Part shown: piece after piece, positions 1 through 17,673 of the stretch
How positions within the stretch are numbered: position 1 is the stretch's first letter
How the letters are laid out: each line of letters opens with the position of its first letter
Source: a virus
Lineage: Duplodnaviria > Caudoviricetes
Direction: 5' to 3' (one strand)
Length of the DNA: 31,432 nucleotides
IMG/VR virus record: IMGVR_UViG_3300033755_000092
Span: 1 to 31,432 of that record
The notes under the pieces: generated by a model
What the model was told of the DNA's origin: nothing
The model's input: the letters and a program-made list of their open reading frames with translations, nothing else
Database searches by the model: none
Translations under genes and position numbers: made by a program

Positions 1-1
1 G

Positions 2-148: not shown

Positions 149-229
149 GAAATAGAGGGTGGGGGGCCAGGTGCCCGCGAAGCAGCGTGAAATCTAGCTT
201 TTGAGGGGGTGACGAGGCTTGAGGAAGTT

Positions 230-285
230 TGAGAAAAAATGCCGAATTTGCCGGAAAAATGCAGGATAAAATGAGAAAAATGCCG
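230..285 (+). repeat. Three imperfect direct repeats (core AAAAATGC) at 20-21 bp spacing; candidate transposase-binding sites of the left end
   Basis: TGAGAAAAAATGCCG 230-244, GGAAAAATGCAGG 253-265 and TGAGAAAAATGCCG 272-285, lying just outside the first phage gene. Confidence 0.5.
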
Positions 286-657
286 CTAGTGGTTCGAGCC
301 TATGACGATCTCCCGATGCCAGTCCTCGGACCATTTGAGGATCAATTCAAGTAGTCGGGTGGACGCAACTTTTAGATCGTTAATTCCAAAAGTCTCTTCT
401 ATCACTTGGCTGAAGCGATTATTGTAAAAGTACCTGCCGCCATTTCGTTGAATTGCCTCGATCAATTCCTTGCGTGAAGCGCGCGATCGAGTTGATTCGC
501 TTCCCTGTCTTTTCCCAGATTTCCCAACAGCACTTAGATGCACATCGCCGTTGATGTGAATAGACAAATTCTGGATTACGATCCCGCTTGAGCTTGAGGG
601 TTTTCCCTCATGAGATTTAAGCGCGTTGACGAGTTTCAACGTCAGTTCGTCATTCAT
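286..657 (-). CDS. Hypothetical protein downstream of the repressor (likely lysogen-expressed)
   Basis: 123-aa AT-rich ORF starting 2 bp after the repressor stop on the same strand. Confidence 0.7.
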   Translation of the reverse strand: MNDELTLKLVNALKSHEGKPSSSSGIVIQNLSIHINGDVHLSAVGKSGKRQGSESTRSRASRKELIEAIQRNGGRYFYNNRFSQVIEETFGINDLKVASTRLLELILKWSEDWHREIVIGSNH

Positions 658-659
658 GA

Positions 660-1106
660 TCAGCTAGTCAGGGCGCTAACAAGGTTTTCCGTCTTACGTT
701 TAAGCTCTTCTCGTATGATCGATACGAGAGCGGATTTTTGTTCAGAGTTTATTTCTCGCCCTGTTGCCTTAAGGGCTTCTTCCACCAGTTCAACCGCACT
801 GTCAATATATATCGGTTTTCTTTGCGGGCTTATTTGAGATGACTGGTCCTCCTTACTACTTAATCCAAACACAAGTTCGTCTAGGCTTAAATTGAAGTTC
901 CTGGCCAAGTAGACAGCCCACTCCAAAGGCCACGTGCCACGCTTTTTTGCCTGGGTAATGTTGGATTCGTTGATGCCGAGCGCCTGAGCCAGCTCTCGCT
1001 GGGTCTTGATCCTGAGGAGCCGTTGAGCGCGCTGCCAGGCCTCCTCAAACGGAAGGACGGTGGCATTTTCCAGGACTGAGTTTGCAGCCAAGTTTGCAAC
1101 CTCCAA
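660..1106 (-). CDS. Phage CI-type HTH repressor
   Basis: TQRELAQALGINESNITQAKKRGTWPLEWAVYLARNFNLSLDELVFG is a typical CI (186/P2-type) HTH. Divergent from the early operon. Start codon uncertain. Confidence 0.85.
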   Translation of the reverse strand: MEVANLAANSVLENATVLPFEEAWQRAQRLLRIKTQRELAQALGINESNITQAKKRGTWPLEWAVYLARNFNLSLDELVFGLSSKEDQSSQISPQRKPIYIDSAVELVEEALKATGREINSEQKSALVSIIREELKRKTENLVSALTS

Positions 1107-1295
1107 TTTTAGATAAATCCCGCAATATTTCAGTATATTAAATTCATTTGACGCAAAAATTTATTTGCAACCAATTTTTTATCTTGAATTAAGTTTTGTG
1201 CGAGCTTAAGTTGTCGCCATGAATACAGCGCGACGCTACCCGACATCCTCTCCGGGGACAATATCCGGGGCGTCGCAAATTTCGGACACGGCGTC
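1081..1295. promoter_or_regulatory. AT-rich divergent lysis/lysogeny switch region with repeated TTTGCA(A/G)CC boxes
   Basis: Lies between divergent repressor and early genes. TTTGCAGCC 1081-1089, TTTGCAACC 1093-1101 and 1164-1172; TTGACG at 1148-1153. Confidence 0.55.
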
Positions 1296-1714
1296 ATGAA
1301 AGGCCAACAGTTCGACCTTTGGCACAAACCAAGCCTGGACGTGACCCAACGGGTCAAGGCGGCTCTTCGCGAGGTCATGTCGGTATGTCCGCTCAGCCGC
1401 GAGGAGATCGCGGACAGCATGTCGAACGCGGCTCGCAAAGAGGGATTGGCTACAGATAGGTCGCCGGTCTCTCCCGACATGCTGGACAAATGGGCCGCCT
1501 CAAGCGCGGTCACGCACCGCATGCCTCACCATTTCATTGTCATCTTCTGCTCCGTCACCCTTTCGCTGCTGCCCATTCAGGCCATGTTGGCCCCGTTGAA
1601 GTCCGCCGCTGTCCTAGCGAGGATCTGGATCTCCTGGAACTCGCCAGAATTGGCATTCAGGAGGAGGAGCTTGCCCGCAAAAAGAAAGCCATCAAGGGAA
1701 GGCTCAAGAAATGA
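1296..1714 (+). pseudogene. Phage regulatory protein, apparently split by a -1 frameshift near 1613 (pseudogene or sequencing error)
   Basis: The N-part (LSREEIADSMS...SPDMLDKWAASS...HRMP) reads in the 1296 frame. A helical C-terminus (PSEDLDLLELARIGIQEEELARKKKAIKGRLKK) is in the -1 frame and ends in an ATGA overlap with the next gene. Confidence 0.55.
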
Positions 1715-1923
1715 AAATGAAAACCAAGGCGGTTCAGCGCTGGGCGTTCGATAACGACGTGACCTGGGTCATGGTTTCCAGAGAGGCAGGTGTCAGCAAG
1801 TCGCAGGTCAGCCATGTCGTGAATAACAGACGCACGGACACCGGAGACGCTGTTCGGAATGTCCTGTGCTTCTATGGATGCCCGGCCGAGTGCCTGGGCA
1901 CCGATGGTGAGCAGCGCAAATGA
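1711..1923 (+). CDS. Small Ner/Cro-like HTH protein
   Basis: VMVSREAGVSKSQVSHVVNNRR HTH pattern; directly upstream of and ATGA-coupled to the transposase. Confidence 0.75.
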   Translation: MKMKTKAVQRWAFDNDVTWVMVSREAGVSKSQVSHVVNNRRTDTGDAVRNVLCFYGCPAECLGTDGEQRK

Positions 1924-3962
1924 AGGACGCTTTCTCCACCAAGGAGTTGATGGCCGAACTGGGAGTCTCACGTCAGGCGATCGAAAAGCTTGCCGATCGC
2001 CAGGGATGGAAGTGCCGAGTAGAGCCATCCAGCGGCCGCAACGGCACGCTCAAGCTCTGGCGGGTGGAGAGCATGGACGAGAAGACCAAGATCACCCTGG
2101 GCATGCGCCAGCGCACGGCCCTGGCCGTCATTCCCGGCGGCAAAGGCTCCCGGACTGCTCCGCTTCCGGCCAGCCGGGCGCTGGAGCCGGAATTGCTGCT
2201 CCCTGAGCTGCCGCCGGAGAAGCTGCACAAGGCCTCCATGAAGGCCGACCTGGTCTCCCACTACCTGCACGCCAAGGCTTGCGCCAAGCGCAAGGGGCAA
2301 AAGATCGAGGATGCCCGGGCCGGCTTCGTCCTGGCCTACAACGCCGGCATCTCCTACCCGTCCATCCTGGCCGAGCTGGGCGCGACCTCATGGAAGTCCT
2401 TGGAGCGCTGGGCCGTGAACCTCCGGCAGTGCGGCCACGACTGCGCCGCCCTGGCAGAGCGCTACGGCCAGCACCGCAAAGGGCAGAGCAAGGTCACTGA
2501 GGCTGAGAAGGCCATCCTGCTCAAGCTGCTGCTGCACCAGCACAAGATCAAGGTCGGCACGGCCATAGAAATGGCCAAGATGAACCTAGGGCAGCAGGGC
2601 GTTCCGTCCCCCAGTTCGCCCAGCACGCTTCGCGGATTCGTGAATGAATTTCGGGCGCACAATGCGGACATCTGGACCCTGGCCAGGGAAGGCGAGAAGG
2701 CGCTTACGGACAAGATCGCGCCCTATTTCGAGCGCGACATCTCGCTGCTGGAGGTTGGCGACGTGCTCATCGCGGACGGTCACGTCTGCAATTTCACGGT
2801 GGTCAACCCCTTCACGGGCAAGGCAGCGCGCCCCACGCTGATCGCCTTTCTGGATTGGGCCAGCCGGGATGTGGTGGGCTACGCCTACATGCTCACGGAG
2901 GATACCCAGGGCATCCATCTGGCCCTGTACCGGGCGATCCAGCGACTGGGGAAGATGCCCAGGGTGGTCTACCTGGACAACGGCAAGGGGTTCAAGGCCA
3001 AGGTGTTCACCAAGGACCTGGACCTGGAGCAAACCGGCATGGCGGGCCTGTACGGACGCCTGGGCATAATGGCCGTGTTCGCCAAGCCCTACAACGCCCG
3101 CTCAAAAGTGATTGAGCCCTTCTTCAAGACCTTTTCCGACCATTTCGAGCGTTTCGTGCCCAGTTTCTCGGGGGCATCCATCACAGACAAGCCCGCCCGC
3201 TTGCGCCGCAACGAAAAGTTCATGCAAGGCCTGGCTCCGGGAGCACCCATCAGCATCGAACAGGCCTCGAACGCTTTCGAATCCTGGCTCGAACTCTCCT
3301 ACCGCCAGCGCCCACACTCGGGCCTGGGCAAGCGCTCGCCCGGCGAGGTGTTCACGGCCGGTCGCGGAGAAGGAGTGGACCCGGGCCAGCTGCGCTTCCT
3401 GATGATGCACGAGGAAGTGGCCCACCTCACCAACAACGGGGTGCCCCGCTTCGACGGCCACTACTATCACGAAGCCTTGTACGGCCTGCGCACCCGGGTG
3501 CTCATCCGTTACGACTGGCACGATCTGCGGAGCGTCCACGTCTACGACTTGGACGGCAACTACATCTGCGAGGCCAAGCGCACCACGCCAGTGCATCCAA
3601 TGTTCGCGCTGATCGGAGGCAAGGACGCCCCGGGGTATGCGGAATTCCGCGAGCAGAAGAAAGCCCAGGAATCACTCAAGCGGGGGACGAAGAGGGTGGT
3701 GGCTGAGGCCGCGCGCCTGGGCAAGCTGGACGGCATCCGCGACGTCCTGCCCATCCCCGCCGATCCGCGCATGGTTGCAGACATGGAGCGCATCGCGGCC
3801 GAGAACACGCCTCTTCCCAAGCTTCCGGATATCGAAATTTCAGAGGAGTCCAGTCCGGCGAGGCCGGGTCGCTTGATCGACCCGACATCGCTGGACTGGA
3901 TGGACGACAACGACTTGGAGGCAGCGTTCCAGCGCTCCCTCCAGGCAAGCTCAAGGAGGTAG
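1920..3962 (+). CDS. MuA-like DDE transposase
   Basis: N-terminal HTH (FSTKELMAELGVSRQAI), catalytic motifs ADGH / YLDNGKGF / PYNARSKVIEPFF, and a Mu transposase C-terminal region (VLIRYDWHDLRSVHVY). Confidence 0.95.
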   Translation: MKDAFSTKELMAELGVSRQAIEKLADRQGWKCRVEPSSGRNGTLKLWRVESMDEKTKITLGMRQRTALAVIPGGKGSRTAPLPASRALEPELLLPELPPEKLHKASMKADLVSHYLHAKACAKRKGQKIEDARAGFVLAYNAGISYPSILAELGATSWKSLERWAVNLRQCGHDCAALAERYGQHRKGQSKVTEAEKAILLKLLLHQHKIKVGTAIEMAKMNLGQQGVPSPSSPSTLRGFVNEFRAHNADIWTLAREGEKALTDKIAPYFERDISLLEVGDVLIADGHVCNFTVVNPFTGKAARPTLIAFLDWASRDVVGYAYMLTEDTQGIHLALYRAIQRLGKMPRVVYLDNGKGFKAKVFTKDLDLEQTGMAGLYGRLGIMAVFAKPYNARSKVIEPFFKTFSDHFERFVPSFSGASITDKPARLRRNEKFMQGLAPGAPISIEQASNAFESWLELSYRQRPHSGLGKRSPGEVFTAGRGEGVDPGQLRFLMMHEEVAHLTNNGVPRFDGHYYHEALYGLRTRVLIRYDWHDLRSVHVYDLDGNYICEAKRTTPVHPMFALIGGKDAPGYAEFREQKKAQESLKRGTKRVVAEAARLGKLDGIRDVLPIPADPRMVADMERIAAENTPLPKLPDIEISEESSPARPGRLIDPTSLDWMDDNDLEAAFQRSLQASSRR

Positions 3963-3967
3963 GCCCC

Positions 3968-4660
3968 TTGCGCAAGCAGTTCGCCATGACGGCAAACGTA
4001 AAACGCTATGTGACGGCCGTCAACGCCGCCGTGGCCAGCCCGGCCGGTATCGACAAGTTCGTGATCGTGGCCGGCGAGGTTGGCCAGGGGAAAACCGAGA
4101 CAAGTTTATGGTGGAAGAACCACCACAGCCCGCACTCGGTGCTGGTGCGCATCAAGAAGGCCATGGGTCCACGCTGGCTCCTGGAGGACATCGTCTCGGA
4201 GTTGGGGCTCATGCCCGCCAAGAAGAGCCAGGGCCTCTTCGATCAGATCGTGGAGACGCTCATGGGCTCGGACCGGGCGCTGATCCTGGACGAGGTGGAC
4301 TACGTGGCGGACAAGACCACCCTGGTGGAGACCATACGGGACATCGGGGACATGACCGGCATCCCCGTCATCCTGATCTGCATGCCCTGGGCCGATGAGC
4401 GGTTGAAGCGCTACCCCGCGCTCATGCGCAGGGTGAGCCAGCGCGTGGTGTTCAAAGACCTGGAACACGACGACGTGTGTGAGGTGATGGGGCAGATCTG
4501 CGAGGTTCCGGTCGCGGACTGCGCGGTGCAGGCCATCCTGGCGGGCGACAAGAAGATGCCCGTGTACAAGCTCTACCGCTGGGCGCAGGCCTGCGAGCAG
4601 CTGGCCCGCAAGCACAACGTTTCAGAGGTCCGGGCCGAACATTTGGCCCGCAAGGAGTAG
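3968..4660 (+). CDS. MuB-like AAA+ transposition ATPase
   Basis: Walker A GEVGQGKT, Walker B LILDEVD; follows the transposase; AGGAGG upstream of a TTG start. Confidence 0.9.
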   Translation: MRKQFAMTANVKRYVTAVNAAVASPAGIDKFVIVAGEVGQGKTETSLWWKNHHSPHSVLVRIKKAMGPRWLLEDIVSELGLMPAKKSQGLFDQIVETLMGSDRALILDEVDYVADKTTLVETIRDIGDMTGIPVILICMPWADERLKRYPALMRRVSQRVVFKDLEHDDVCEVMGQICEVPVADCAVQAILAGDKKMPVYKLYRWAQACEQLARKHNVSEVRAEHLARKE

Positions 4661-4662
4661 CC

Positions 4663-5220
4663 ATGGGCCAGGTGGGACCCCTGGGCCTGGTGAAGGCCTT
4701 CATCGCCGAGTTGTGCGTCAAGGATGGTGAATTCCGTGAGGCGGACGTCGCCTTTCCGGCGGTCCTCACGCGGGTGACCGGGTTCGAGCGGCGTAAGGTG
4801 CTGCGGGTTATGGACCGGCTCTGCCGTGAGGGCGACCTGCGGCTGGTGGCGGAGGAAAAGGTCCGCACGCCCCGGGGTGAAATGGGGCCGGCCCGTCGCA
4901 ATCCCACCTGGCGCGTCGTACGCGATCCGCGCCTGCGCCGGGACAACCAGGTCCACTCCCGGGTCACGTGCCGGGACAAAGTGTGGAGCACGTTGCGTGG
5001 CCTTCGGCCACGCGCGGTCACCGTGTCGGAAATAAGCCGCTTGAGCGGCTGCGATGACGAAACCGTCCGTGAGGCGATCAAGCTCCTGGAAGAGCACGGT
5101 TACGTGAAGAACAGGGGCAAGATCGAGCGCGAAAAGGCCTGGGTACTGGTGAAGGATGCCGGGCCGAAACGACCGGAGACTCCGGAGGCGCGGCCCGAGA
5201 CCCTGGAGGCACAGTCATGA
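4663..5220 (+). CDS. Hypothetical winged-HTH protein
   Basis: VTVSEISRLSGCDDETVREAIKLLEEHGYV pattern; operonic position after the ATPase. Confidence 0.7.
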   Translation: MGQVGPLGLVKAFIAELCVKDGEFREADVAFPAVLTRVTGFERRKVLRVMDRLCREGDLRLVAEEKVRTPRGEMGPARRNPTWRVVRDPRLRRDNQVHSRVTCRDKVWSTLRGLRPRAVTVSEISRLSGCDDETVREAIKLLEEHGYVKNRGKIEREKAWVLVKDAGPKRPETPEARPETLEAQS

Positions 5221-5579
5221 GCTGGCTCGTGGTCCTCGAAAGGGCCGTCCGGGAAAAGAGTCTCTCCGTGGTGGCCGGCGAGCTGGGCTACCGCTCCAAG
5301 AGCGTGGTCTGCGAGGCGCTCAAGGGAACCTACAAGGGCAATTTGCAGCGTCTGGAGGAGCGGGTTCTGGAAACCTACGGACGTCCAGAAGCGGTCCAAT
5401 GTCCGGTGCTGGGCGAGATCGCGGGCGAGGCGTGCGCCGCCAACCGCGATCTCGCCAAACGCCTGGGCGTTCGCGGCGGAAACGCCCAGACCATCAGTCT
5501 GCGCAAGGGGTGTTTGGGGTGCCTGAAAAAGGATTCGAACGTCCGTTCGAACGGAGGGAAAGGACATGGAAGAGCGTGA
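5217..5579 (+). CDS. Hypothetical HTH protein with Cys-rich C-terminus
   Basis: SLSVVAGELGYRSKSVVCEALKGTYKG ... VQCPVLGEI...C...C..C; ATGA overlap with the previous gene. Confidence 0.75.
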   Translation: MSWLVVLERAVREKSLSVVAGELGYRSKSVVCEALKGTYKGNLQRLEERVLETYGRPEAVQCPVLGEIAGEACAANRDLAKRLGVRGGNAQTISLRKGCLGCLKKDSNVRSNGGKGHGRA

Positions 5580-5922
5580 TCTTTTGAATCTGGCCCGACT
5601 GCTCTGCGTGACCGAGTTGAACCTGATCCGGGCGTCGCGAGCGGAGCCGGAGGATCGGCCGATGTTGGTGACGTCCTGCCACGAGGACGCGCAGCGCGCC
5701 CTGGACTTCTGGGTCAAGGGCCGTGTCACCGGGCTGATGTTCGCCAAGCTCGCCATGGAAGAGGCCTGCTCAAGGCTGGAAAGCGCCCGGAAGTTCGTGG
5801 TCGAGGTGCGCAGGACCGAGCTGATCGGGCTGGCCGTGGCCAAGGTGCTTACGGCCTTGCGGGAAGTGCAAACCGCCCTGGCTGCTCGCCAGGAAAGGGA
5901 GGTGGCCAATGCTGGTTCTTAG
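5566..5922 (+). CDS. Hypothetical protein
   Basis: 118-aa ORF with AGGA RBS, overlapping its neighbours in the operon. Confidence 0.6.
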   Translation: MEERDLLNLARLLCVTELNLIRASRAEPEDRPMLVTSCHEDAQRALDFWVKGRVTGLMFAKLAMEEACSRLESARKFVVEVRRTELIGLAVAKVLTALREVQTALAARQEREVANAGS

Positions 5923-6160
5923 CGTCGAACGGAGCGTGGAGCTTCTCGAGTCGGCCATTGGCGATTTGGCCTTGGCCGTCGGCGGCCAAAACCCGAAGGA
6001 GATCCAATCCCTGGCGCATGCGGCCTGGAAAAAGCTCGGCCAAGCCCGGGCGCTCCTTCGCAGGCCCGATCTGGCTGGGTCTCTTCCGGCCCCGGGGCGT
6101 GCGCCCTTGACCATCCTTCCCGGTGGCTCCGGCTCACGCGAGGAGGTTGCCCATGGCTAG
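5909..6160 (+). CDS. Hypothetical protein
   Basis: 83-aa ORF preceded by GGAGGT; overlaps the Gam start. Confidence 0.6.
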   Translation: MLVLSVERSVELLESAIGDLALAVGGQNPKEIQSLAHAAWKKLGQARALLRRPDLAGSLPAPGRAPLTILPGGSGSREEVAHG

Positions 6161-6692
6161 ACATAAGCCGGCTCCCGCCATGGTCATCACCGACATTGAA
6201 AGCGCGGACAAGGCCCTGGCGGAGCTTGCCGAGATCGAGCGGGAACTCTCCCTGATAGAGATCACGGTGGATGAGGAGGTCGACGCGGCCAAAAAGCGCG
6301 GTGCGGAGCTAGCCAAGCCCCATTTGGAACGCCGCAAGGAACTTGGAACCGCGCTGAGCGTATTCGCCGCCAGTCGTAGGAGCGAACTGTTCGGAAAGGC
6401 CAAGTCGCTCCAGCGCCTGCATGGTGTGTTCGGCTTCCGGCTCTCCAGGAAGCTGGCAACCCTCAAGGGATGGAATTGGAAAAAGGTGCTCTCGGCTGTC
6501 CAGGGCATGGGAACGAGCTTGGAGGATTTGGCAATCTTCGGTGGCTGTGTGCGCACCAAGCCCGAGCTGGACAAGGAAGCAGTGCGCAAGCTCTCCGAGG
6601 CCGACATGGCCCGGATCGGCTGCAAGATCCAGGAGGAAGACGAGTTTTTCATCGAAACCAAGAAGGAGAACGTCGCCGAGAAGGCGGCATAG
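6153..6692 (+). CDS. gam: Gam-like host-nuclease inhibitor
   Basis: ADKALAELAEIER...LFGKAKSLQRLHGVFGFRLS...RTKPELDKEA...QEEDEFFIE; AGGAGG before ATG 6153. Confidence 0.85.
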   Translation: MARHKPAPAMVITDIESADKALAELAEIERELSLIEITVDEEVDAAKKRGAELAKPHLERRKELGTALSVFAASRRSELFGKAKSLQRLHGVFGFRLSRKLATLKGWNWKKVLSAVQGMGTSLEDLAIFGGCVRTKPELDKEAVRKLSEADMARIGCKIQEEDEFFIETKKENVAEKAA

Positions 6693-6702
6693 GGGGCCTG
6701 TG

Positions 6703-6936
6703 ATGGCGAGGGTGAGAACTGAACATACCCTGGAAGCATCCATGGCGCTGGTTAAGGTCTGGAATGAACAATATCCCCCAGGGACGCCCGTCAAGCTGGT
6801 CAAGGATTTTGGGGACATCGTTCTGACCAAAACACGTTCAGAGGCGTGGGTGATCTCTTCCGGGAACGCGATGGTCTACGTGGATGGGATTGCCGGTGGC
6901 TACAAGCTTTCGCGCGTCATCCCCATCAAGCAGTAA
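6703..6936 (+). CDS. Hypothetical phage protein
   Basis: 77 aa (WNEQYPPGTPV...TRSEAWV...VYVDGIAGGY); its stop TAA abuts hammerhead 1. Confidence 0.75.
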   Translation: MARVRTEHTLEASMALVKVWNEQYPPGTPVKLVKDFGDIVLTKTRSEAWVISSGNAMVYVDGIAGGYKLSRVIPIKQ

Positions 6937-6996
6937 GCGAAACCGCCCTTCGGGGCGGTCGTCCGGGCGTGGCGGCCCGGGCCTGATGAGCAGCCA
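6937..6996 (+). ncRNA. Type II hammerhead ribozyme 1 (predicted cleavage after C6960)
   Basis: GC-GAAA-CCGCCC-UUCG-GGGCGG-UC^-GUCCGGGC-GUGGCG-GCCCGGGC-CUGAUGA-GC-A-GCCA. Complete core, stems III and I, 2-bp stem II, and a loop I UGGC / 3' GCCA pseudoknot. Confidence 0.92.
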
Positions 6997-7012
6997 AGGA
7001 GTGATGAGACAC

Positions 7013-7222
7013 ATGGAACTGACCGTACTCACGATAGTGCATAATTCAACGCAGTGTCTTGATCATATTGAGAAACACATTGGTGCTGCATCTACGTTGA
7101 TTGACTTAATTCTTGGCGACAAAACGTGCACGCAGAAGCTCAAGGCGATTGAGGGTCTTAAGATGGAGTTCAACATTATCAAAAGTGATGCGGAAAGGGC
7201 ACTTGCCTTCCTGGGAGACTAA
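7013..7222 (+). CDS. Small AT-rich hypothetical protein between the two ribozymes
   Basis: MELTVLTIVHNSTQCLDHIEKH...AFLGD; AAGGAG at 6996-7001 (alternative ATG at 7004); codon usage visibly more AT-rich than the flanks. Confidence 0.7.
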   Translation: MELTVLTIVHNSTQCLDHIEKHIGAASTLIDLILGDKTCTQKLKAIEGLKMEFNIIKSDAERALAFLGD

Positions 7223-7240
7223 TAGCGCCTCTCGCTTGAA

Positions 7241-7300
7241 GCGAAACCGCCCTTCGGGGCGGTCGCCCGACGGTGGTGCGCCGGGCCTGATGAGCAGCCG
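7241..7300 (+). ncRNA. Type II hammerhead ribozyme 2 (predicted cleavage after C7264)
   Basis: GC-GAAA-CCGCCC-UUCG-GGGCGG-UC^-GCCCGACG-GUGGUG-CGCCGGGC-CUGAUGA-GC-A-GCCG. Same architecture as copy 1, with compensatory changes in stem I. Confidence 0.9.
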
Positions 7301-7312
7301 AAGGAGAATCCC

Positions 7313-7534
7313 ATGGCCTCCATCTACCTGATTTCCGCCGAAGACCAGCCCGGAGCCACGCGCAGGGTGCATCCGGCTGGCGGCTACAAACCTTGCCGGA
7401 AACAAGGACTTCACCGCGCCTTTCAGTCGCCCGACGGCATGGCGGTCTGCCCGGGATGCGATCGCACTTGCGTTCTGCCGGACGGATTCAAGCGCGGAGA
7501 TGCGTTCCTGACCGTGCCGAGGCCCAAGGAGTAG
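7313..7534 (+). CDS. Hypothetical protein with CxxC
   Basis: 73-aa ORF with AAGGAG RBS at 7301-7306 directly after ribozyme 2. Confidence 0.7.
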   Translation: MASIYLISAEDQPGATRRVHPAGGYKPCRKQGLHRAFQSPDGMAVCPGCDRTCVLPDGFKRGDAFLTVPRPKE

Positions 7535-7538
7535 CGCC

Positions 7539-7970
7539 ATGAGCAACGCAAAGTGGAAACCGCTGCCGGGTTTTCCGGTCTACGAGATCAACCGTTCCGG
7601 CTGGGTGCGCAATGCGCGCGGCTATATGCTTGCCAACGGCCAGGGCGCGATGCTTTCCACGAATGGGAAGACCGTGAGCCTTGGCCGCAAACGGCTGCTT
7701 GAGCTGGCCGCTGAGGCGTTTGCTCTGGAAACGCCGCGCGAGATCGTTCCGCTTACGATCCAGGAGCTTCCAGTTCCGGTCAAAGTCGCGGAGCCGAAGC
7801 CGGAAGTCCAGGCAATCACCAAGGAGCATGAGCCTTACGCCCATCCTCACGTGACCAGGGAGCGGCTGCGCCAGTGGATCGATCCTGAACACCAGCTGCC
7901 CCTGCGTGATCCCTGGGCGGACGGCAGCATCGAGGTCGAGTCGACGTGGGCGCTCCAGGGGGTGATGTGA
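7539..7970 (+). CDS. Hypothetical protein with N-terminal NUMOD4-like motif
   Basis: KWKPLPGFPVYEINRSGWVRN resembles NUMOD4; no HNH motif follows. Confidence 0.65.
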   Translation: MSNAKWKPLPGFPVYEINRSGWVRNARGYMLANGQGAMLSTNGKTVSLGRKRLLELAAEAFALETPREIVPLTIQELPVPVKVAEPKPEVQAITKEHEPYAHPHVTRERLRQWIDPEHQLPLRDPWADGSIEVESTWALQGVM

Positions 7971-8146
7971 TGAATCACGCTTACGCTGAACGCCCCCAGG
8001 CTGCGCCCACCGAATGCCCATGTCTCACCTGCCATGAACACGGCTCGTACTGCGCAGAGAGCTGCTCCCGGTTCGAGGCCTGGGAGCGCGCCGGGAAGCC
8101 TGGACGGACCGTCACGACTCAACTGGCCAAGCCGGAAGGAGAATGA
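7970..8146 (+). CDS. Small Cys-rich hypothetical protein
   Basis: TGATG-coupled start; CPCLTC...CAESC. Confidence 0.6.
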   Translation: MNHAYAERPQAAPTECPCLTCHEHGSYCAESCSRFEAWERAGKPGRTVTTQLAKPEGE

Positions 8147-8604
8147 CCATGGGCACCATCATGATCACCCCCGTGCAGATCAAGAAGATCCACGCCTTGA
8201 AAAACGCCATAGGCCTGGACGAGGACGCCTACCGCGACATGCTCGAAGATCGCTTCCGGGTGTCTTCCAGCAAAGGGCTGACCGGCAAGCAGGCCGCCGC
8301 GCTCATCGGCGACTGGGAGAAGAAGGCCGTGGCCTCCGGAGCCTGGAAGGTCCACCCCGGCCGCAAGAAGCACGAGGATCTTCGCACCCGCGCGGATGAC
8401 TTCGCCTCGCCCGCCCAGCTACGCATGGTCGAGGCCATGTGGGACCAGGTGGCCCGAGCGCCCCAGGCCGAGCGCGGCGCAGCCCTGGACAAGCTGGTGC
8501 TGCGCATCGTGAAGCGTGACAAGCTCAGGTTCGTCAAAAAGACCGACGTACCCTCGCTTGTGGCCGCTCTGGAGACCATGGGCGCTGAGAGGGAAAGCCG
8601 ATGA
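8143..8604 (+). CDS. gemA: GemA / DUF1018-like regulatory protein
   Basis: QIKKIHALKNAIGLDEDAYRDML...SSSKGLT...ASPAQLRMVEAMW; canonical position before Mor. Confidence 0.85.
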   Translation: MTMGTIMITPVQIKKIHALKNAIGLDEDAYRDMLEDRFRVSSSKGLTGKQAAALIGDWEKKAVASGAWKVHPGRKKHEDLRTRADDFASPAQLRMVEAMWDQVARAPQAERGAALDKLVLRIVKRDKLRFVKKTDVPSLVAALETMGAERESR

Positions 8605-8900
8605 ACATCCATCCGGAACTGCTGGCCATGGTCCAGCCGGAAGACCTGGCTGGAGATATGGCCCTGGTGGCCCAGGAATGCGGCCTGGAGACGGCCGTGC
8701 GGCTGTGGCTCGGGATGAAGGGAACCTCGGTCAGCGTGCCCAAGAACGCGCTCAACAAGGCGATCGAACGCTTCGTGCGCGAGCGCTACGACGGCCGCAA
8801 CGCCCCCTTGCTGGCCGTAAGTTGCGGGATAAGCGAGCGCCAAGTGTATGTGATCATGGAAAAGGCCCCCATCAAGAACGATCAGCATCGGTTGGTGTGA
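8601..8900 (+). CDS. mor: Mor/C-family transcription activator
   Basis: GLETAVRLWLGMKGTSVSVPK...YDGRNAPLLAVSCGISERQVYVI. Confidence 0.85.
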   Translation: MNIHPELLAMVQPEDLAGDMALVAQECGLETAVRLWLGMKGTSVSVPKNALNKAIERFVRERYDGRNAPLLAVSCGISERQVYVIMEKAPIKNDQHRLV

Positions 8901-8980
8901 GGCGAATATGTGTGACGCAGCCCCCTCCAACGACAACCAGGTCCTCGTCACCGTGGACCTCATGAACCTGGTTTCCAGAG

Positions 8981-9202
8981 CTAAGCAAATCTTTCCCATT
9001 CGCTCAGGTCAGTCGGCCCAGAAACGCTCGGGAAGCAGTCCCAGTCATAATGGCCGGTGGCCTGCATGTACACGGCATCTGCTGCTGCCTGAGGCGAAAG
9101 GAAGTGGCCAAGCCTTTCATCGTCCACACCAAGCCACCAGCCCCCCTGGTTATTGGGCACGATGAAGAAAACGCCTACGCGTGAACGGTAAATGTACGTC
9201 AT
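8981..9202 (-). CDS. Small hypothetical protein in opposite orientation (moron-like)
   Basis: MTYIYRSRVGVFFIVP...SPQAAADAVYMQATGHYDWD...PTDLSEW; AGAGGG upstream. Confidence 0.7.
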   Translation of the reverse strand: MTYIYRSRVGVFFIVPNNQGGWWLGVDDERLGHFLSPQAAADAVYMQATGHYDWDCFPSVSGPTDLSEWERFA

Positions 9203-9306
9203 GAGATTACCCCTCTTCACGATGATGAAGACGAAAGGATTGTGCGTGAACCTGCGCACGATGGCAATCACATCACGCATGAAAACTGCGCACTGGAGAA
9301 CGCATA

Positions 9307-9738
9307 ATGGCTGATCCCCGCAAGGCCGCCCTATATTTTTCCGTGAAATATACCTCCGGTCGGACGCGCTCGGTGTCGCTTTTTCCTGCCGCTGACTTCC
9401 CAGGTGGCCAGGGCGTCACGGATCGTTGCCGGTGTCGGGTCGGCAGGTCCTGGCACATGCCCGGCGGCCAGAAATATGCCTTCCTGACTGTGGACGAAGC
9501 CTGGGATCTGCTTCTCGGAAGGCAGGGCAGTCCGCAATCCGAACCAGAGCCTGATCTGCCCGTGGGGAGCTATGTGCGCGTGCCCAGCTCATTGCTGGCC
9601 GGGAAGCCGCAGTACACCCGGACCTTCACCAAATCCAGGCCATTCCAGGGAGTGGACGGCCGCTGGAGAGTGTTGTGCGCTTTTTTCGAGGAGCCAATTA
9701 TGGTCGAGGAAATTCTGGCCGTGGAAGTGAAAAAGTGA
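9307..9738 (+). CDS. Hypothetical protein
   Basis: 143-aa ORF with GGAG RBS. Confidence 0.7.
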   Translation: MADPRKAALYFSVKYTSGRTRSVSLFPAADFPGGQGVTDRCRCRVGRSWHMPGGQKYAFLTVDEAWDLLLGRQGSPQSEPEPDLPVGSYVRVPSSLLAGKPQYTRTFTKSRPFQGVDGRWRVLCAFFEEPIMVEEILAVEVKK

Positions 9739-9863
9739 TGTGCATGCTATTCAGCGCCGCTTGGCGCTTGTTTCTTTGGGGCGGCCACCTCCTGGGGGTG
9801 GCCGCTTTCTTCGGATGTCGGTATGAGACCATCCGCCAATGGTTCTCCAGGAGGTCCCCTTGA
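9738..9863 (+). CDS. Small hydrophobic peptide
   Basis: 41 aa; TGATG overlap upstream and TTGA overlap with the PLD start downstream. Confidence 0.4.
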   Translation: MCMLFSAAWRLFLWGGHLLGVAAFFGCRYETIRQWFSRRSP

Positions 9864-10447
9864 ACTCACGCAAAATGACCGTCACCGTCCTCCTTCTGCT
9901 CTCCCTGGCCATCCCGGCCAGCGCCGAGCCCATCCACATCCAGGACGCCGGGGGCAGCGTCAACTTCAGCCCGGACGGCGGCTGCACGGCCGCGCTGGCG
10001 GAGCGCATCGGGCAGGCGCGCAAAGAGATCCTGGTTGAGTGCTACAGCTTCACCTCCAGGCCCATCGCCCAGGCCCTGATCGAAGCCCACCAGCGTGGCG
10101 TGACCGTGCTTGTTATTTCAGACCCCACGAACCTCAACGGACGCGGCTCCATGACCGCCGAGCTTGAGGCAGCCGGGGTCACGGTGCTCTACGATACCGC
10201 ACACAAGATCGCCCACAACAAAGTGATGACCTTCGACGGGGTGGCCGTGGCCACCGGCAGTTTCAACTTCTCGGCTTCGGCCGAGCACGCCAACGCCGAG
10301 AACCTGCTCATCCTGGAGAACGCCGGGCTGGCCTCAATCTACGCCAGGCGATGGCATGAGCTTCGGGAATATGCTGTGCCGAGGGTGGAAGTGGTTCCCC
10401 GCAAGGTGCATGCCCGCGATCTTGCGCCGGAAGCCGGGAAGCCGTAG
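9860..10447 (+). CDS. Secreted phospholipase D-family (Nuc-like) nuclease
   Basis: Signal peptide (VLLLLSLAIPASA), single HxKxxxxD motif (HNKVMTFD) followed by TGSFNFS and NAENLLIL; AGGAGG before TTG 9860. Confidence 0.85.
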   Translation: MNSRKMTVTVLLLLSLAIPASAEPIHIQDAGGSVNFSPDGGCTAALAERIGQARKEILVECYSFTSRPIAQALIEAHQRGVTVLVISDPTNLNGRGSMTAELEAAGVTVLYDTAHKIAHNKVMTFDGVAVATGSFNFSASAEHANAENLLILENAGLASIYARRWHELREYAVPRVEVVPRKVHARDLAPEAGKP

Positions 10448-10479
10448 ATTGTCGGCATCATGATATCGGAGGGAGCACA

Positions 10480-10986
10480 ATGAAAAAGCATGCCCTGGCG
10501 CTTATTTTCACCATCCTGCTTGCTGTCCCGGCGGCAGCCCGGCCCGTCAACGACTTCACCGTCGAGGATGGCCAAGCCTCCTATCAGTTCGCCCTGGAGG
10601 ACACGGAGATGAAGCTCTTTTTCTTCAGCTATCAGAACCAGACCTGGTCGGATCAAAGAAGCAAGGTCTTCACCTACAAGCCGACCGGCCCCGCACCCGT
10701 GGACAGCCCGGTGGCGAGAGAGGAGATCGCCAAGGCCGTCAAGTGGTTGTTCACCAATGAAATGGCCCGCGTGGACTCCACGCATCCTGCGGAGCTGCCA
10801 TTTGGAATCAGCTGCTTCCCTGTCATCACCATCGCGGACGGGAAAGATCTGGAAGGGCTTGGGATTCGTTTCACGGTGGAGAGCGGGGCGATCCGGAAGG
10901 TGGAGGTGGCCAGCTGCATGACATGCCGGATGATGCCCGACCTCATCAAAGACTACGAGGCCAAGAAGCCCAAAGCCAAGAAGTGA
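10480..10986 (+). CDS. Secreted hypothetical protein
   Basis: Signal peptide MKKHALALIFTILLAVPAAA; GGAG RBS; C-terminal CxxC. Confidence 0.8.
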   Translation: MKKHALALIFTILLAVPAAARPVNDFTVEDGQASYQFALEDTEMKLFFFSYQNQTWSDQRSKVFTYKPTGPAPVDSPVAREEIAKAVKWLFTNEMARVDSTHPAELPFGISCFPVITIADGKDLEGLGIRFTVESGAIRKVEVASCMTCRMMPDLIKDYEAKKPKAKK

Positions 10987-11014
10987 TTTTCGAGAAGCGT
11001 TCGAATGAGGTTCG

Positions 11015-11048: not shown

Positions 11049-11575
11049 CATTTGATCTTGATCTGCTTGGCCAAGGCAGCCAGCCATTGCGCCAAGCGTT
11101 CTTCGCTGACGGGATCAAACCAGGGGCATGGCATGGTGATGTTCCAGTTTTTGAACCCAGGCACCGGCAACAAGCGCTTGGGCCGGTAGCGGCCGAAGCC
11201 GAAGACCTTGATGGCCTGGTCGCTGCTGGCGAAGCGCGTGCAGAGCCTGCGGCATCCGCATTCTTCATCGTGGCAGCGGGTCAGATCGTCAATCTCCTTC
11301 GGGAAGGTCGGGTGCAGGATCGTCCCCGTGGCCACGCCGTAGTGGATGGCGTGGCCACGGCAGAAGTGCAGCCCGGGCTCGGCCTCGGCGGCGTGCTCCA
11401 GGCAGAGAGGAGCATCGCAGGTCTTGCCCTTTCCAAGGGGAAAGTCGCAGAGCACCACCGCTTCGCGGGGGCAGTCGTCCACGCAACAGCGGGATGATTC
11501 TCTCCGACGGCCACGGAAGCAGAAAGTGATGGCGTAATCTGCTCCGTAGGGGATGTATTGGTCACACCCCATCAC
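11048..11575 (-). CDS. Cys/His-rich hypothetical protein (two putative metal-binding modules)
   Basis: LCDFPLGKGKTCDAPLCLEHA...HFCRGH and DLTRCHDEECGCRRLCTRF...CPWF; overlap-coupled to gpG. Confidence 0.75.
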   Translation of the reverse strand: MMGCDQYIPYGADYAITFCFRGRRRESSRCCVDDCPREAVVLCDFPLGKGKTCDAPLCLEHAAEAEPGLHFCRGHAIHYGVATGTILHPTFPKEIDDLTRCHDEECGCRRLCTRFASSDQAIKVFGFGRYRPKRLLPVPGFKNWNITMPCPWFDPVSEERLAQWLAALAKQIKIK

Positions 11576-12015
11576 AGCCCCTCGGTGAGGTAGTCCCCCA
11601 TGCGCCGCACGATCTTCTCCATGTCCTTCTCCTCGAGCTTCAGAAACGGCCTGGCCGAGATCTCCACCTTCCGGCCGCGCCCGGCCATGCCGCCGAGCTG
11701 CTGGATGGCGGCGTAGACCTTGTTCGTGCCAACCACGGCCTGCCGGTCGTCGTAGCTCTGGCTGATGGAGCTGGCCAGGCTGCCGGAGCGCTGGAGGATC
11801 ATGCCCGGCCAGTTGCCGGTCCTGGTGCGGTCCTTGACGGTGGCCGGGGCGAGGTCCTTCCAGCGGGGGCGGCCTTCCTGCTCGAAGTTCTCCTCCACGG
11901 CGTCGGCCATGATGCCGGCGGCCATGCGCATGGCCGGGGTCAGGTCGCGCGCCCGGGCCGAGAGGAGCGTCATGACCTCTCGAAACTGCTTGTCGTCCAC
12001 CTGGATCTCGATCAC
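11572..12015 (-). CDS. Phage virion morphogenesis protein (Mu gpG / P2 gpS-like)
   Basis: NFEQEGRPRWKDLAPAT...ILQRSGSLASSI...VGTNKVYAAIQQLGG...ARPFL. Confidence 0.9.
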   Translation of the reverse strand: MIEIQVDDKQFREVMTLLSARARDLTPAMRMAAGIMADAVEENFEQEGRPRWKDLAPATVKDRTRTGNWPGMILQRSGSLASSISQSYDDRQAVVGTNKVYAAIQQLGGMAGRGRKVEISARPFLKLEEKDMEKIVRRMGDYLTEGL

Positions 12016-12170
12016 TTGGCGGCTCCTTGGGCCACTCCGTAGGCGAGGGGCCTCAAGAGGAAGCCGAGCGTAGCGCCCAGGAACTTGGCCAGGCAGCGGG
12101 GAATGCCCAGATCGCGGCAGCGGCAGTAGATGTGGAGGGAGTTGAACCTGTGCTGGCGTTCACTTCGCAT
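12012..12170 (-). CDS. Small hypothetical protein downstream of MuF
   Basis: 52 aa (MRSERQHRFNSLHIYCRCRDLG...); GGAGGT RBS; GTGA overlap with gpG. Confidence 0.65.
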   Translation of the reverse strand: MRSERQHRFNSLHIYCRCRDLGIPRCLAKFLGATLGFLLRPLAYGVAQGAAK

Positions 12171-12210
12171 GTTGCCATCACCTCCAGGAGGAGTTATTGT
12201 TTTCGAAGCT

Positions 12211-12315
12211 AGCTGGCGAGGTCGAGATTCCCGGAGCGCCTGGGCGCTGAGAAGGGATGAAGGACCCCGGTAAAACCCATGTGATTTACCGCTCGGGTGA
12301 GACGCCTCGCCAGCT
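12211..12315 (-). ncRNA. Candidate multi-stem structured RNA
   Basis: Perfect 11-bp closing stem AGCTGGCGAGG/CCTCGCCAGCT enclosing CCCG/CGGG and three inner hairpins; fills most of the MuF 3' intergenic region. Confidence 0.55.
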
Positions 12316-12318
12316 TTC

Positions 12319-13692
12319 CTATTTCTTGCCGAAGAGCAGCTCACCCACCCGTTGTTTGTTCATGGCCTTGTCGTTGGCCTGCATCATGTTCCACAGAAGG
12401 CTGCCGTCCTGGTTCACCCTGGCCACCACCAAGAGATCGTTCTTACCCGTGAAAAGTCCGACGTAGCGTTCCCGGTAACCGTCCTCGTAGGCGGTCAGGT
12501 AGACCTCATATGGGTCCTCGAGCGTGGGCAGGATGAAGTTCGCGTAGCGTTCGCGGGCGTCGGCCGGATTTTCCACCAGGTGGGCGAGCAGCTCCGGTTT
12601 GAGGTAGACCTTGCTCACAGGCGTGGCCACCTCAAGGAGCGGTCGCTTGTCGAGGCCAAGAGCGCGGTTGAGGATGGTAGCCGCCTCTTCCCGGGTCTTG
12701 CCGCCATCCAGGAGTGCGGGGGCCGGCAGTCTGAGCTTGGCCGGGACGTCGCGCAGATCCGGACGTCCGTAGTCTTTCCAGGTCTTTTGGTTGGGTTGTA
12801 TTCTCACGCAAGGCTTGAACGAATCGGCGAAGGAAACGTCAAGGCAGTCCGGCAGGCCGCCGTTTGCATCGAAGAGCGGCCAGCTCTTGCCCGGGTTGTA
12901 TCCCCATCCGGGATCGGTGGCGATGCGACGCCCGGTGTTATCCGTGAACACCGCCGCCGAGGCGGTCTTGCCGCTCTTCGCGGAGACCGGCACCTCAACC
13001 TGGCTCAGGTGGTCCGCACCGCTCTCCACCGTGCGGCCCTTGGCCGTAACCGCCTCCCCGTCCATGGCCCGCACCCGGCAGCGGCAATTCCAGCCGTTTG
13101 GCGGGTAGAAGCTGCCCCAGAAGGGATCGTCGTATTTGAACGTTCTGCCGTGCAAAGCGCGGTGCGACGGCCTGGTCCTGGCGTCCAGCACGGCCACGTA
13201 CATCCAGAAGGGCTGCTCCTTGGCGTTGGCCAGTTGTTCCTGGTAGCGCCCGGCCATGTAAGCGGTCTGCATGTTGGTCTGGTAGATGGTGCGCAGACGG
13301 TACGGGCTGCCCAGCTGGGCGCGGCGCACCTCGCCGGTGCGCGGGTCCGTCACCTCCTGCTTGCCCCACCAACCCAGGGCTTGCAGGCGCGGGGTGAGGT
13401 TCTTCTGGAACTGGCGAAGCGTCAGGCCCTGGTCCAGGGACTTCTGGACTTCCTCCCGGATGGTGGAGAGCACGTCAAGCGTCATGGCCTTGGCCACGGT
13501 GAAGCTCTTGGCCTGGGCGTCTGCCAGCACCTCATGCCAGTCGAAAGAGATCGCGTAGCCTTTGGCCTTCAGGTAAGCCATAGCCCTCTCGGGCGGCAGG
13601 CCCAGGGCGTACTTGAGGTCCGGCAGCCCGGGCTTGCCGGGTGCGCCTGGTTTGTCCGGCTTGTCCGGGCCGTCCGGCTTAGGACCCGGCAT
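12319..13692 (-). CDS. MuF (gpF) minor head protein with C-terminal PBECR2-like nuclease extension
   Basis: MuF motifs (RLRTIYQTNMQTAYMAGRY, LDARTRPSH, YPPNGWNCRCRV) followed by about 150 aa containing H...RERY...ILPTLEDPYEVY...RERYVGLF...W...KQRVGELLF. Confidence 0.9.
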   Translation of the reverse strand: MPGPKPDGPDKPDKPGAPGKPGLPDLKYALGLPPERAMAYLKAKGYAISFDWHEVLADAQAKSFTVAKAMTLDVLSTIREEVQKSLDQGLTLRQFQKNLTPRLQALGWWGKQEVTDPRTGEVRRAQLGSPYRLRTIYQTNMQTAYMAGRYQEQLANAKEQPFWMYVAVLDARTRPSHRALHGRTFKYDDPFWGSFYPPNGWNCRCRVRAMDGEAVTAKGRTVESGADHLSQVEVPVSAKSGKTASAAVFTDNTGRRIATDPGWGYNPGKSWPLFDANGGLPDCLDVSFADSFKPCVRIQPNQKTWKDYGRPDLRDVPAKLRLPAPALLDGGKTREEAATILNRALGLDKRPLLEVATPVSKVYLKPELLAHLVENPADARERYANFILPTLEDPYEVYLTAYEDGYRERYVGLFTGKNDLLVVARVNQDGSLLWNMMQANDKAMNKQRVGELLFGKK

Positions 13693-15205
13693 GCAGCCGC
13701 CCCCAGACGTCGGCCAGGAAGATGGCCCGGGTCAGGTGCTCCTGGAAATCCTGGTCGTTCATATCGGGATAGGCCGCGCCCAGGCCGTCCAGGATGTCCT
13801 CCAAAGAGCCGCCGCCCTCGATCAGCTTTTGAACGGGCTTCAGAACGCCTTCCATCTCGGCCTGGAGTGCGGAGGGGTCCAGGGTCTGGGCGGCTTCGTC
13901 CAGCTTGGTCTGGTCCGGGAAGGTATGGGGCGCCGTTTCCTCGAAGTTCACCTGGGCAGGCGTGGCCAAGTCGTCAGGAACCGGCGAGGTGGGTTCGGGT
14001 GCGTCGGCCACCATTTCGAAATCGTCGTCGGCCAGATTGTAGACCCGTTTATAGTAGGATCTGGTGAACTTGATCTCGCCAATGTCAGTGAGAACTTTGT
14101 CCCGATCGGCTTGGGACTGATCGACGTCCTCTTCCTCATGGAGTTCGAACGACGGCTGCACCGCATTCCCGAAGTTGACCTCGCGGATCCATCCGATGAG
14201 GTCGTTGAATACTCGGGCCACGATCCGCTTGTCGCCATCCTTGATCTCGCCCCGCACCCGGTCATGCACCTGGGCGGCGGATAGGGAGCCGCCCTTGACG
14301 CTGGTGGTCAGGTTCTGGCCCAGGATGGCGATGGCGATGTCTTCGTCGCAGCTGAACTTGAGGTCCTTGAACAAGGCGGAGGTGCCGGATCTGCTGCCGG
14401 CCTCCTTGATCTCCACGCTGGAATCCTCAGGGATGACCAGCACGGCGTCCTGGATGGCCGCCTCCAGGGTGTCGGCGATATTCTGTATCTCGCGTTCCTC
14501 CATGCCCCGGGGATGCTTGCCCACCAGGTAGGGCATGCCGAACTTCTCCATGAAGGTGAGCCAAAAGCGCATGCCGCCCTTCTTGAACACCACGGGCCAG
14601 AACACCCGCGAGAGCACGCGCTCGCCGTACGGATCCTCATAGGTGGGGTTGTTGCGCGCCAGGAGGAACTTGCGCGGGGGCAACTCCTCGCCAAGCACCA
14701 GGTTCTGCTTGGTGCGCATCCTCAAATTGTTGTCCAGATCGAACACGAACCAGCGAGCCGGCTTGCTCACCACGTCCACCGGCACGAGGAGGCCTCCCAC
14801 CTTGCCCCAGAGGACTTCCAGGGGCTGGTAACCGTAGAGGGGCGCGTTCAGGATCTCGCCGATGATGCGGTCGATATCAAGATCCTCGAAGACTCCCTGG
14901 ATCAGCTTGGCCTGGCGGGAGTTGGCCTTCCCGCGCGCCACCTCCCATTCCAAGGCCTTCACGGCGGCCTTGCGTTGCTCCACGCATGCGCCGACCCGGC
15001 TGTCGGAGAGTAGCTCCTGGTACACCCGGAGGTCCTTGCCTTCACGGCGCAGAATGGGATCGGGGTCGGGCAGATACATGCCCAGGGCGTAAAAGTCGGG
15101 ACTGCGCTGCCGGGTGGCGATCTCACTGGTCAAGGAGGAACGTATGGTGGCCTCCTCGAATTTCATGAACTTGTCGGGTCCGAGCCAGAGTCCTTTTTTG
15201 GGCAT
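13679..15205 (-). CDS. Portal protein (Mu gp29 / DUF935-like)
   Basis: LPDPDPILR...FMEKFGMPYLVGKHP...ILGQNLTT...AAQVHDRVR. Confidence 0.92.
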   Translation of the reverse strand: MPKKGLWLGPDKFMKFEEATIRSSLTSEIATRQRSPDFYALGMYLPDPDPILRREGKDLRVYQELLSDSRVGACVEQRKAAVKALEWEVARGKANSRQAKLIQGVFEDLDIDRIIGEILNAPLYGYQPLEVLWGKVGGLLVPVDVVSKPARWFVFDLDNNLRMRTKQNLVLGEELPPRKFLLARNNPTYEDPYGERVLSRVFWPVVFKKGGMRFWLTFMEKFGMPYLVGKHPRGMEEREIQNIADTLEAAIQDAVLVIPEDSSVEIKEAGSRSGTSALFKDLKFSCDEDIAIAILGQNLTTSVKGGSLSAAQVHDRVRGEIKDGDKRIVARVFNDLIGWIREVNFGNAVQPSFELHEEEDVDQSQADRDKVLTDIGEIKFTRSYYKRVYNLADDDFEMVADAPEPTSPVPDDLATPAQVNFEETAPHTFPDQTKLDEAAQTLDPSALQAEMEGVLKPVQKLIEGGGSLEDILDGLGAAYPDMNDQDFQEHLTRAIFLADVWGRLHAGS

Positions 15206-17621: not shown

Positions 17622-17673
17622 GGCGACTCCGTTTTTTCCAGTTGCTACGCCACAATCACATGATCTCAAGCAA

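Follow-up and report, generated by a model that had tools for sequence, protein, structure and literature searches.

Paired type II hammerhead ribozymes around a single gene in the early operon of a Mu-like phage: candidate sites of mRNA processing and recombination

The early operon of a Mu-like phage carries two hammerhead ribozymes, one on either side of a small gene. Why would a transposable phage place such a pair there? The locus lies in a 31,432-nt virus record, the whole of which was analyzed and is called the window here. The landmarks of the window run from a repressor gene through MuA (1920-3962), MuB, Gam (6153-6692), GemA (8143-8604), and a Mor-like gene (8601-8900) to the head and tail genes. 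The MuA transposase, MuB, Gam, GemA, and Mor genes are present in Mu order, which identifies a Mu-like transposable phage; the Mor-like product stayed under the cut-off of PF08765 and matched PHROG 836 with an E value of 8e-7. The hammerhead pair sits between gam and gemA, in the accessory part of the early operon. A sequence-only reading of the window had placed pseudoknotted type II hammerheads in the early operon of a transposable phage, and both the Rfam matches and the Mu-order early genes agree with it. A search of the plus strand from 1400 to 9270 returned no promoter-like or terminator-like sites. Elsewhere in the window, the minus strand carries the packaging block (11572-17669), whereas the genes for endolysin, head protease, capsid, and tail are on the other strand; the block holds a terminase small-like gene, terminase large (15362-16705), portal (13679-15205), minor head (12319-13692), and neck (11572-12015) genes.

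The two hammerheads and the gene between them

The features of the locus are as follows.

6153..6692, plus strand: Mu Gam-like protein, marking the left side of the variable early region (PF07352, E 1.6e-27)
6703..6936, plus strand: upstream accessory gene, 77 aa, no counterpart in the closest relative
6937..6996, plus strand: hammerhead 1 (type II), Rfam RF02276, 79.8 bits
6937-6938, plus strand: hammerhead 1, 3' strand of stem II
6939-6942, plus strand: hammerhead 1, GAAA
6942-6959, plus strand: hammerhead 1, stem III with UUCG loop
6960, plus strand: hammerhead 1, predicted cleavage site C17
6961-6982, plus strand: hammerhead 1, stem I
6983-6989, plus strand: hammerhead 1, core CUGAUGA
6990-6991, plus strand: hammerhead 1, 5' strand of stem II
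6993-6996, plus strand: hammerhead 1, pseudoknot tail
6961..7264, plus strand: predicted 304-nt released RNA, deduced from the cut sites
6996..7001, plus strand: Shine-Dalgarno (SD)-like AAGGAG of the cargo gene, by sequence, overlapping the last base of the hammerhead 1 pseudoknot tail
7013..7222, plus strand: cargo open reading frame (ORF), 69 aa, predicted two-helix hairpin, GC 0.44, GC3 0.51
7241..7300, plus strand: hammerhead 2 (type II), Rfam RF02276, 65.6 bits, layout of hammerhead 1 shifted by 304
7264, plus strand: hammerhead 2, predicted cleavage site C17
7265-7286, plus strand: hammerhead 2, stem I with one A.C mismatch
7301..7306, plus strand: SD-like AAGGAG of the downstream gene (ATG 7313), by sequence
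7313..7534, plus strand: downstream accessory gene, 73 aa, Cys-containing, no counterpart in the closest relative
8143..8900, plus strand: GemA (gp16) and Mor-like genes, marking the right side of the variable early region (GemA, PF06252, E 5.6e-19)

Both elements span the full Rfam model RF02276 (Hammerhead_II; positions 1-66 of 66), with copy 1 matching at 6935-6999 (79.8 bits, E 2e-15) and copy 2 at 7239-7303 (65.6 bits, E 1e-11) against a gathering score of 37; the Rfam search of the whole window returned nothing besides these two matches. The search with the hammerhead type II model had been proposed in the sequence-only reading, whose two copies of about 60 nt, 304 nt apart and with full cores, were recovered. 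The copies form a 61-nt direct repeat with 89% identity and a spacing of 304 nt. Both cores match the consensus C3 U4 G5 A6 N7 G8 A9, G12 A13 A14 A15, and U16 H17, as set out in the methods part of PMC3088659, and the core-adjacent pairs are intact in both copies. The GUC triplets end at 6960 in copy 1 and 7264 in copy 2, the core reads CUGAUGA in both, stem III with its UUCG loop is the same in both, and stem II is open and has 2 bp, stems I and III being closed. Stem I differs between copies 1 and 2 at pair 2 (U-G to C-G), at pair 6 (G-C to an A.C mismatch), and at pairs 7 and 8, which are swapped. The 4-bp pseudoknot between loop I and the tail reads UGGC:GCCA in copy 1 and UGGU:GCCG, with two G-U pairs, in copy 2. 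The stem III, GUC, stem I, CUGAUGA, and pseudoknot details of the earlier reading were all found in the sequence. Our own hammerhead descriptor gave 1 match in 100 Markov resamples of the window, searched on both strands. In addition, the two copies showed 0 differences in independently assembled contigs of run X1, which is possibly the source sample, and the junction of hammerhead 1 with the cargo gene was confirmed by one contig of run X3. In the predicted fold, stems I and III of hammerhead 1 had in-context pairing probabilities of 0.83-1.0. The two window elements are genuine type II hammerheads by structure.

Hammerhead 1 begins 0 nt past the stop codon of the upstream gene (6703-6936), and hammerhead 2 begins 18 nt past the cargo stop, with the SD and ATG 7313 of the downstream gene coming after it. 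One complete ORF with a ribosome-binding site (RBS) had been described between the predicted cut sites, and it is indeed there (7013-7222, 69 aa, with its AAGGAG at 6996..7001). The predicted 304-nt RNA would carry the stem I hairpin of hammerhead 1 at its 5' end, the cargo ORF, and the stem III hairpin of hammerhead 2 at its 3' end; both terminal hairpins were present in the computed fold. The interval 6961..7264 would also be the DNA unit deleted by repeat-repeat recombination. An in-frame ATG at 7004 was rejected as the cargo start because it is too close to the SD. Read from an ATG within gene 6703, the cargo frame stays open over 112 codons and crosses hammerhead 1, which is probably incidental; this 112-aa ORF (6884-7222) was set aside, the call of the sequence collection being the 69-aa form.

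The cargo product was modeled as a two-helix hairpin (pLDDT 92). It showed no family in Pfam, PHROG, or PADLOC and no usable match in Atlas; a PDB profile search gave nothing significant (best E 0.007, a designed coiled coil), and Foldseek returned no hit at E<=0.001, just generic helical hairpins. Profile searches for the cargo family collected 7 and 16 proteins, and H18, H22, and D59 were invariant in 21 aligned sequences; one of these 21 members had a single weak match to DUF3847. A resemblance to the CsoR/RcnR metal sensors was considered and rejected (probability 0.35 and TM 0.37 for the CsoR row). Single-sequence searches for viral relatives of the cargo, Gam, gene 7313, and gene 6703 returned none from a collection that may lack records close to the window. 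Homologs of gene 7313 are common in related early regions, and in locus L151, two hammerheads 312 nt apart enclose a homolog of gene 6703 (61%) and no other gene.

The cargo had been called a foreign gene in the sequence-only reading. Its composition supports part of that description (GC 0.44 versus 0.62 for the window; 0.50, 0.59, and 0.62 in three homologs measured), but its close homologs are located in Mu-like early regions. The cargo is a circulating accessory gene of these phages, with an atypical composition here. It was matched in 7 of the 401 genomes of the Desulfovibrio-genome family. Among seven distinct close contexts, a cargo homolog lies directly after a hammerhead in four (L191, L198, L200, and L206) and one gene further away in two (L151 and L195), and no hammerhead was seen nearby in L202. 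The depth of the run X1 contig over the cargo (6.7 versus 10-12) was not used as evidence.

These contexts bear on the idea that the pair excises the cargo RNA, which is then circularized by self-ligation or by a host RtcB-type ligase into a stable mini-mRNA. Hammerhead cleavage leaves 5'-OH and cyclic phosphate ends, so the predicted cut ends would be compatible, and, the 5' halves being identical, one hammerhead could be restored from the two ends. But such a circle would hold an intact hammerhead and would therefore reopen, and a cargo homolog stands alone between two hammerheads in none of the seven close contexts. Spliced or circular products of prophage clusters were sought and not found, according to the text of PMC3088659. 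We consider circularization highly improbable.

The hammerhead subfamily in relatives and the state of copy 2

The window-derived pattern was present in at least 133 viral loci and 58 genome loci. Because most of the 58 genome loci are Desulfovibrionaceae, the host of the window phage probably belongs to this family too. Among the matches listed, our own descriptor recognized 209 distinct sites in 193 loci, 202 of them with 250 nt on both sides; these counts are lower bounds because the descriptor misses altered cores such as those of L195 and L206. Among the 202 sites listed, a stop codon lay within 40 nt upstream at 156 (median, 2 nt; random, 9%), and an SD with a start codon lay within 45 nt downstream at 135 (median, 19; random, 17%). 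The complete order of stop, ribozyme, SD, and start was found at 107 of the 202, compared with 1.8% at random and 4 of 202 on the opposite strand, with the random expectation taken from 3000 random positions. In a sample of 151 genomes belonging to the same family as a Desulfovibrio genome, 51 carried the element, as did 0 of 14 control genomes. Besides the hammerhead in the accessory region, several prophages (L143/L151, L146, L158/L190, L162/L163, L043, L051, and L064) have another just upstream of the MuA region.

Covariation was examined in an alignment of 81 sites, made of the two window copies and 79 of 81 equal-length sites after exclusion of L049 and L059, whose stems deviate. In this alignment, 98.5% of the cells were paired, and two-sided changes were found in seven of eight stem I pairs and three of four pseudoknot pairs. 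The pseudoknot was 95.1% paired over the 81 sites, with few two-sided changes. Stems II and III carry no covariation evidence because the search pattern fixed them. In sequence comparison, the covariation across the family shows selection on RNA structure.

Cleavage appears to be dispensable at some sites. Rfam found an altered-core hammerhead at 3512-3575 of L195, one gene upstream of the cargo homolog, and a hammerhead with an altered core lies at 1392-1462 of L206. In both, the hairpins and tail are intact and the position between stop and SD is kept, and it is from these altered cores with kept hairpins that the dispensability follows.

We then considered the origin of copy 2. Copies 1 and 2 share 27 identical bases, and their stem III variant occurs at only 4 of the 209 sites listed, two of which are the window copies themselves. 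Copies in one locus resemble each other more than copies from different loci do (5.0 versus 7.9 stem I mismatches; n = 23 versus 7237). The stem I of copy 1 is identical to that of 13 other sites. The nearest neighbors of copy 2 stem I are 4 positions away, and the pairs swapped in copy 2 are those of other allele classes that are common. This pattern fits a 5' half that was duplicated or converted, with a stem I from another allele, rather than stepwise covariation. The stem I differences noted in the sequence-only reading are all real, but in view of the allele classes, they are not just covariation that arose after a local duplication.

The computed stem I energy is -11.1 kcal/mol in copy 2 and -16.7 kcal/mol in copy 1, and among 174 stems of the family just 15 are weaker than that of copy 2. 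The modeled stem I probability of copy 2 was 0.73-0.87 with up to 40 nt of downstream RNA and 0.07 with 78 nt, a test in which 42 of the 174 family sites also fell below 0.2. SD accessibility did not change on predicted cleavage (0.59 versus 0.59 and 0.49 versus 0.50) in a model that ignores pseudoknots. A discrete 304-nt RNA would require cutting by both copies, and stem I is the weaker one in copy 2.

These properties could mean that the DNA repeat alone matters, with copy 2, or both copies, a decaying passenger that cuts poorly, and that no separate RNA of 304 nt builds up. At stem I pair 6, copy 2 alone among the 81 aligned sites lacks pairing, its weaker stem and two G-U pseudoknot pairs are joined by predicted misfolding in longer contexts, and altered cores occur in relatives. 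On the other hand, both cores and all core-adjacent pairs are intact, the family covariation indicates selection on the RNA, and 14 of 18 consensus hammerheads assayed were active according to the text of PMC3088659. We regard the passenger explanation as improbable.

Likely gene exchange at the repeats and probable processing of the early mRNA

The conservation of gene neighborhoods was scored as the recurrence of neighboring gene pairs in 108 dereplicated loci (of 139 long loci), with genes from our own simple caller, which left 13 of 140 hammerheads within called genes. Gene adjacency conservation was lowest at hammerhead junctions, 0.078 (n = 84); the next junctions scored 0.202 (n = 139; P = 6e-4), or 0.222 when restricted to spaced junctions (n = 65). 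The loci were selected by and centered on the hammerhead and are related rather than independent, so that these P values are no more than indicative. The flanked genes are not constant, with 63 downstream families at 99 hammerhead junctions. A gene for an HU/IHF-like protein was the commonest upstream neighbor, at 23 of the 99 junctions, and was followed by 20 different downstream families. Among 173 sites, pairs sharing a 150-nt flank did so upstream only in 42 cases, downstream only in 38, and on both sides in 16, with some of the one-sided pairs just below the threshold on the other side.

Exact differences by one unit of repeat plus genes were seen in relatives of the window phage, as distinct from the window's own cassette. 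The 38 long loci with two or more hammerheads, a redundant set, held two independent exact cases with and without such a unit. L170 has a 1094-nt two-gene insert between two hammerheads, and L193, L011, and L126 have one hammerhead; the flanks of L170 and L193 are 99% identical. Similarly, L071 has a 751-nt insert relative to L077 (87%). L054 shows a tandem duplication of a 1160-nt hammerhead-bounded unit with a hybrid middle hammerhead, which has its upstream flank from the last hammerhead and its body from the first. The units of L054 differ at more than 100 positions in their last 480 nt, and this is therefore no simple assembly repeat. The hammerhead-bounded gene at L054:1319-3640, which also occurs in L040, L024, L081, and L182, encodes 343 aa with no match in Pfam, and all differences between its tandem copies fall within the last 480 nt. 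Its C-terminal motifs resemble those of C-type-lectin-fold targets of diversity-generating retroelements.

The closest relative among the loci listed, L194 (MuA, 78%; MuB, 86%), has gam, one hammerhead, and a homolog of gene 7970 and is without genes 6703, cargo, 7313, and 7539. At L194:7030-9400, an AT-rich stretch and a gene directly follow mor, where the window has unrelated genes; by its motifs, this gene presumably encodes a DNA cytosine methyltransferase. Other contigs of run X1 contain a hammerhead that is almost identical but lies between different genes, and the similarity stops at the hammerhead edges. No relative with gene 6703, one hammerhead, and gene 7313, in which the cargo alone is missing, was found, and no sequence joint skipping the cargo was seen in three runs. 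Judged from these sequence comparisons, the hammerhead repeats likely mark crossover points for the gain and loss of accessory genes. Two points were missing from the sequence-only reading: the earlier publication of this arrangement and the position of the repeats at the limits of gene cassettes in the DNA.

We consider it probable, on sequence grounds, that the hammerheads serve as mRNA-processing punctuation that doubles as a recombination boundary in the Mu-like early operon. The hammerheads would cut the long early mRNA cotranscriptionally after 6960 and 7264, and the cut products would part permanently, stem II being 2 bp only. Downstream pieces would gain a fixed hairpin leader (5'-OH, stem I, and core just before the SD), and upstream pieces would end in the stem III hairpin. 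In bacteria, a 5'-OH and terminal hairpins slow RNA decay. The leader with its 5'-OH and stem I, together with the 3' stem III hairpin, may make each piece independent of its neighbors in stability and translation, an effect that we liken to the engineered insulator RiboJ. At the DNA level, the repeats of about 60 bp would supply homology for recombination, as suggested by the pairs with and without a unit in relatives, and the cargo would have entered the window phage as a hammerhead-bounded unit. The hammerhead pair would then exist because a cassette was added at a hammerhead and not because the cargo needs excision. A point on the opposing side is that 89 of the 108 dereplicated loci show a single hammerhead, a lower bound.

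The same cuts could have an opposite outcome. If they exposed the downstream pieces to decay, they would damp the accessory genes, gemA, and mor and act as an early-to-middle timer. The cleavage product of glmS decays via RNase J. Of the 108 dereplicated loci, 71 have a hammerhead placed after MuB, Gam, or one common early family but before GemA, and L194, the minimal relative, keeps the same placement. Differing stability or translation of cleavage products is suggested in the available part of a 2019 review (PMC6765202). Against damping, the strong hairpin of copy 1 (-16.7 kcal/mol) would stand at the start of the 3' product, right before the SD, the RiboJ layout raises expression in E. coli, and many different genes lie downstream of hammerheads. 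We hold damping to be unlikely.

Beyond the window, we tentatively suggest that the type II hammerhead may be a two-level cassette boundary in Mu-like phages, a DNA repeat and a RiboJ-like RNA insulator in one. At the DNA level, accessory genes would be gained, lost, and duplicated at the repeat of about 60 bp, with no recombinase devoted to the task. At the RNA level, each acquired gene would get its own protected mRNA with a standard leader, as in an integron-like plug-and-play array.

Comparison with known systems

Paired hammerheads around a prophage gene have been a known arrangement since 2011, and in this respect the find is largely ordinary. In the text of Perreault et al. (PMC3088659), multiple hammerheads flank single prophage genes or blocks whose identity varies, three prophage clusters were cleaved in vitro and one also in E. 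coli, and the processing of long phage transcripts is proposed as a role. As far as that text describes them, those clusters share with the window the type II topology, the 2-bp stem II, the pseudoknot between loop I and the tail, and several copies flanking genes, and the window has at least two same-strand hammerheads flanking a gene in a (pro)phage, the mark of a clustered prophage case. By analogy, cleavage of the polycistronic early mRNA is likely here because three such prophage clusters were tested. The text of PMC3088659 and 11 supplementary text files contain no Desulfovibrio example, the supplementary files show no match to the motif either, and its figures and alignments may include the subfamily; figures aside, that text holds neither a rule of stop, ribozyme, and SD nor cassette pairs with and without a unit. 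A fixed stop-ribozyme-SD-start geometry and exact pairs with and without a unit in relatives are added by the present comparison. A literature search by title and the start of the abstract, with subscription literature outside its scope, returned no work that treats hammerheads as boundaries of cassettes or of recombination or that deals with them in transposable phages.

In phage Mu (NC_000929), the semi-essential early region from B to gemA/mor has the same landmark order as the window, and the order common to both is repressor, ner, A, B, gam, accessory genes, gemA, and mor. With our descriptor, Mu 1-11000 showed no hammerhead on the strand of the early operon; a match on the opposite strand at 10340-10410 was judged to be due to chance. 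Integron cassettes are single promoterless genes with a repeated structured element between them and are exchanged as units. The present system resembles them in its promoterless single genes, repeated structured element, and unit-wise exchange. It differs in that the window repeat is a ribozyme and exchange is likely by ordinary homologous recombination; no dedicated site-specific recombinase was found among the annotated early genes of the window.

In the 2019 review, as far as its available text goes, the idea of polycistron processing is repeated, and the purpose of these bacterial and phage self-cleaving ribozymes is called undefined (PMC6765202); this locus alone leaves that unchanged. 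The family offers natural comparisons in cultured Desulfovibrio genomes (L149 and L170), in pairs with one and two hammerheads, and in decayed cores, and the altered-core hammerheads of L195 and L206 are natural candidates for inactive controls.

The relation to RiboJ is a functional analogy and not membership. In the available text of Clifton et al. 2018 (PMC6206723), RiboJ raised transcript about twofold and protein 2-10 fold. Both RiboJ as described there and the window elements place a self-cleaving ribozyme just upstream of an RBS, with a fixed leader on the downstream mRNA; RiboJ is synthetic and stands behind a promoter, whereas the window elements are natural, intergenic, and repeated and would also put a hairpin on the upstream piece. 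If the insulator and recombination reading is true, it would explain the clustering of hammerheads in the variable early region of transposable phages, and nature would be using a design that synthetic biologists invented as RiboJ.
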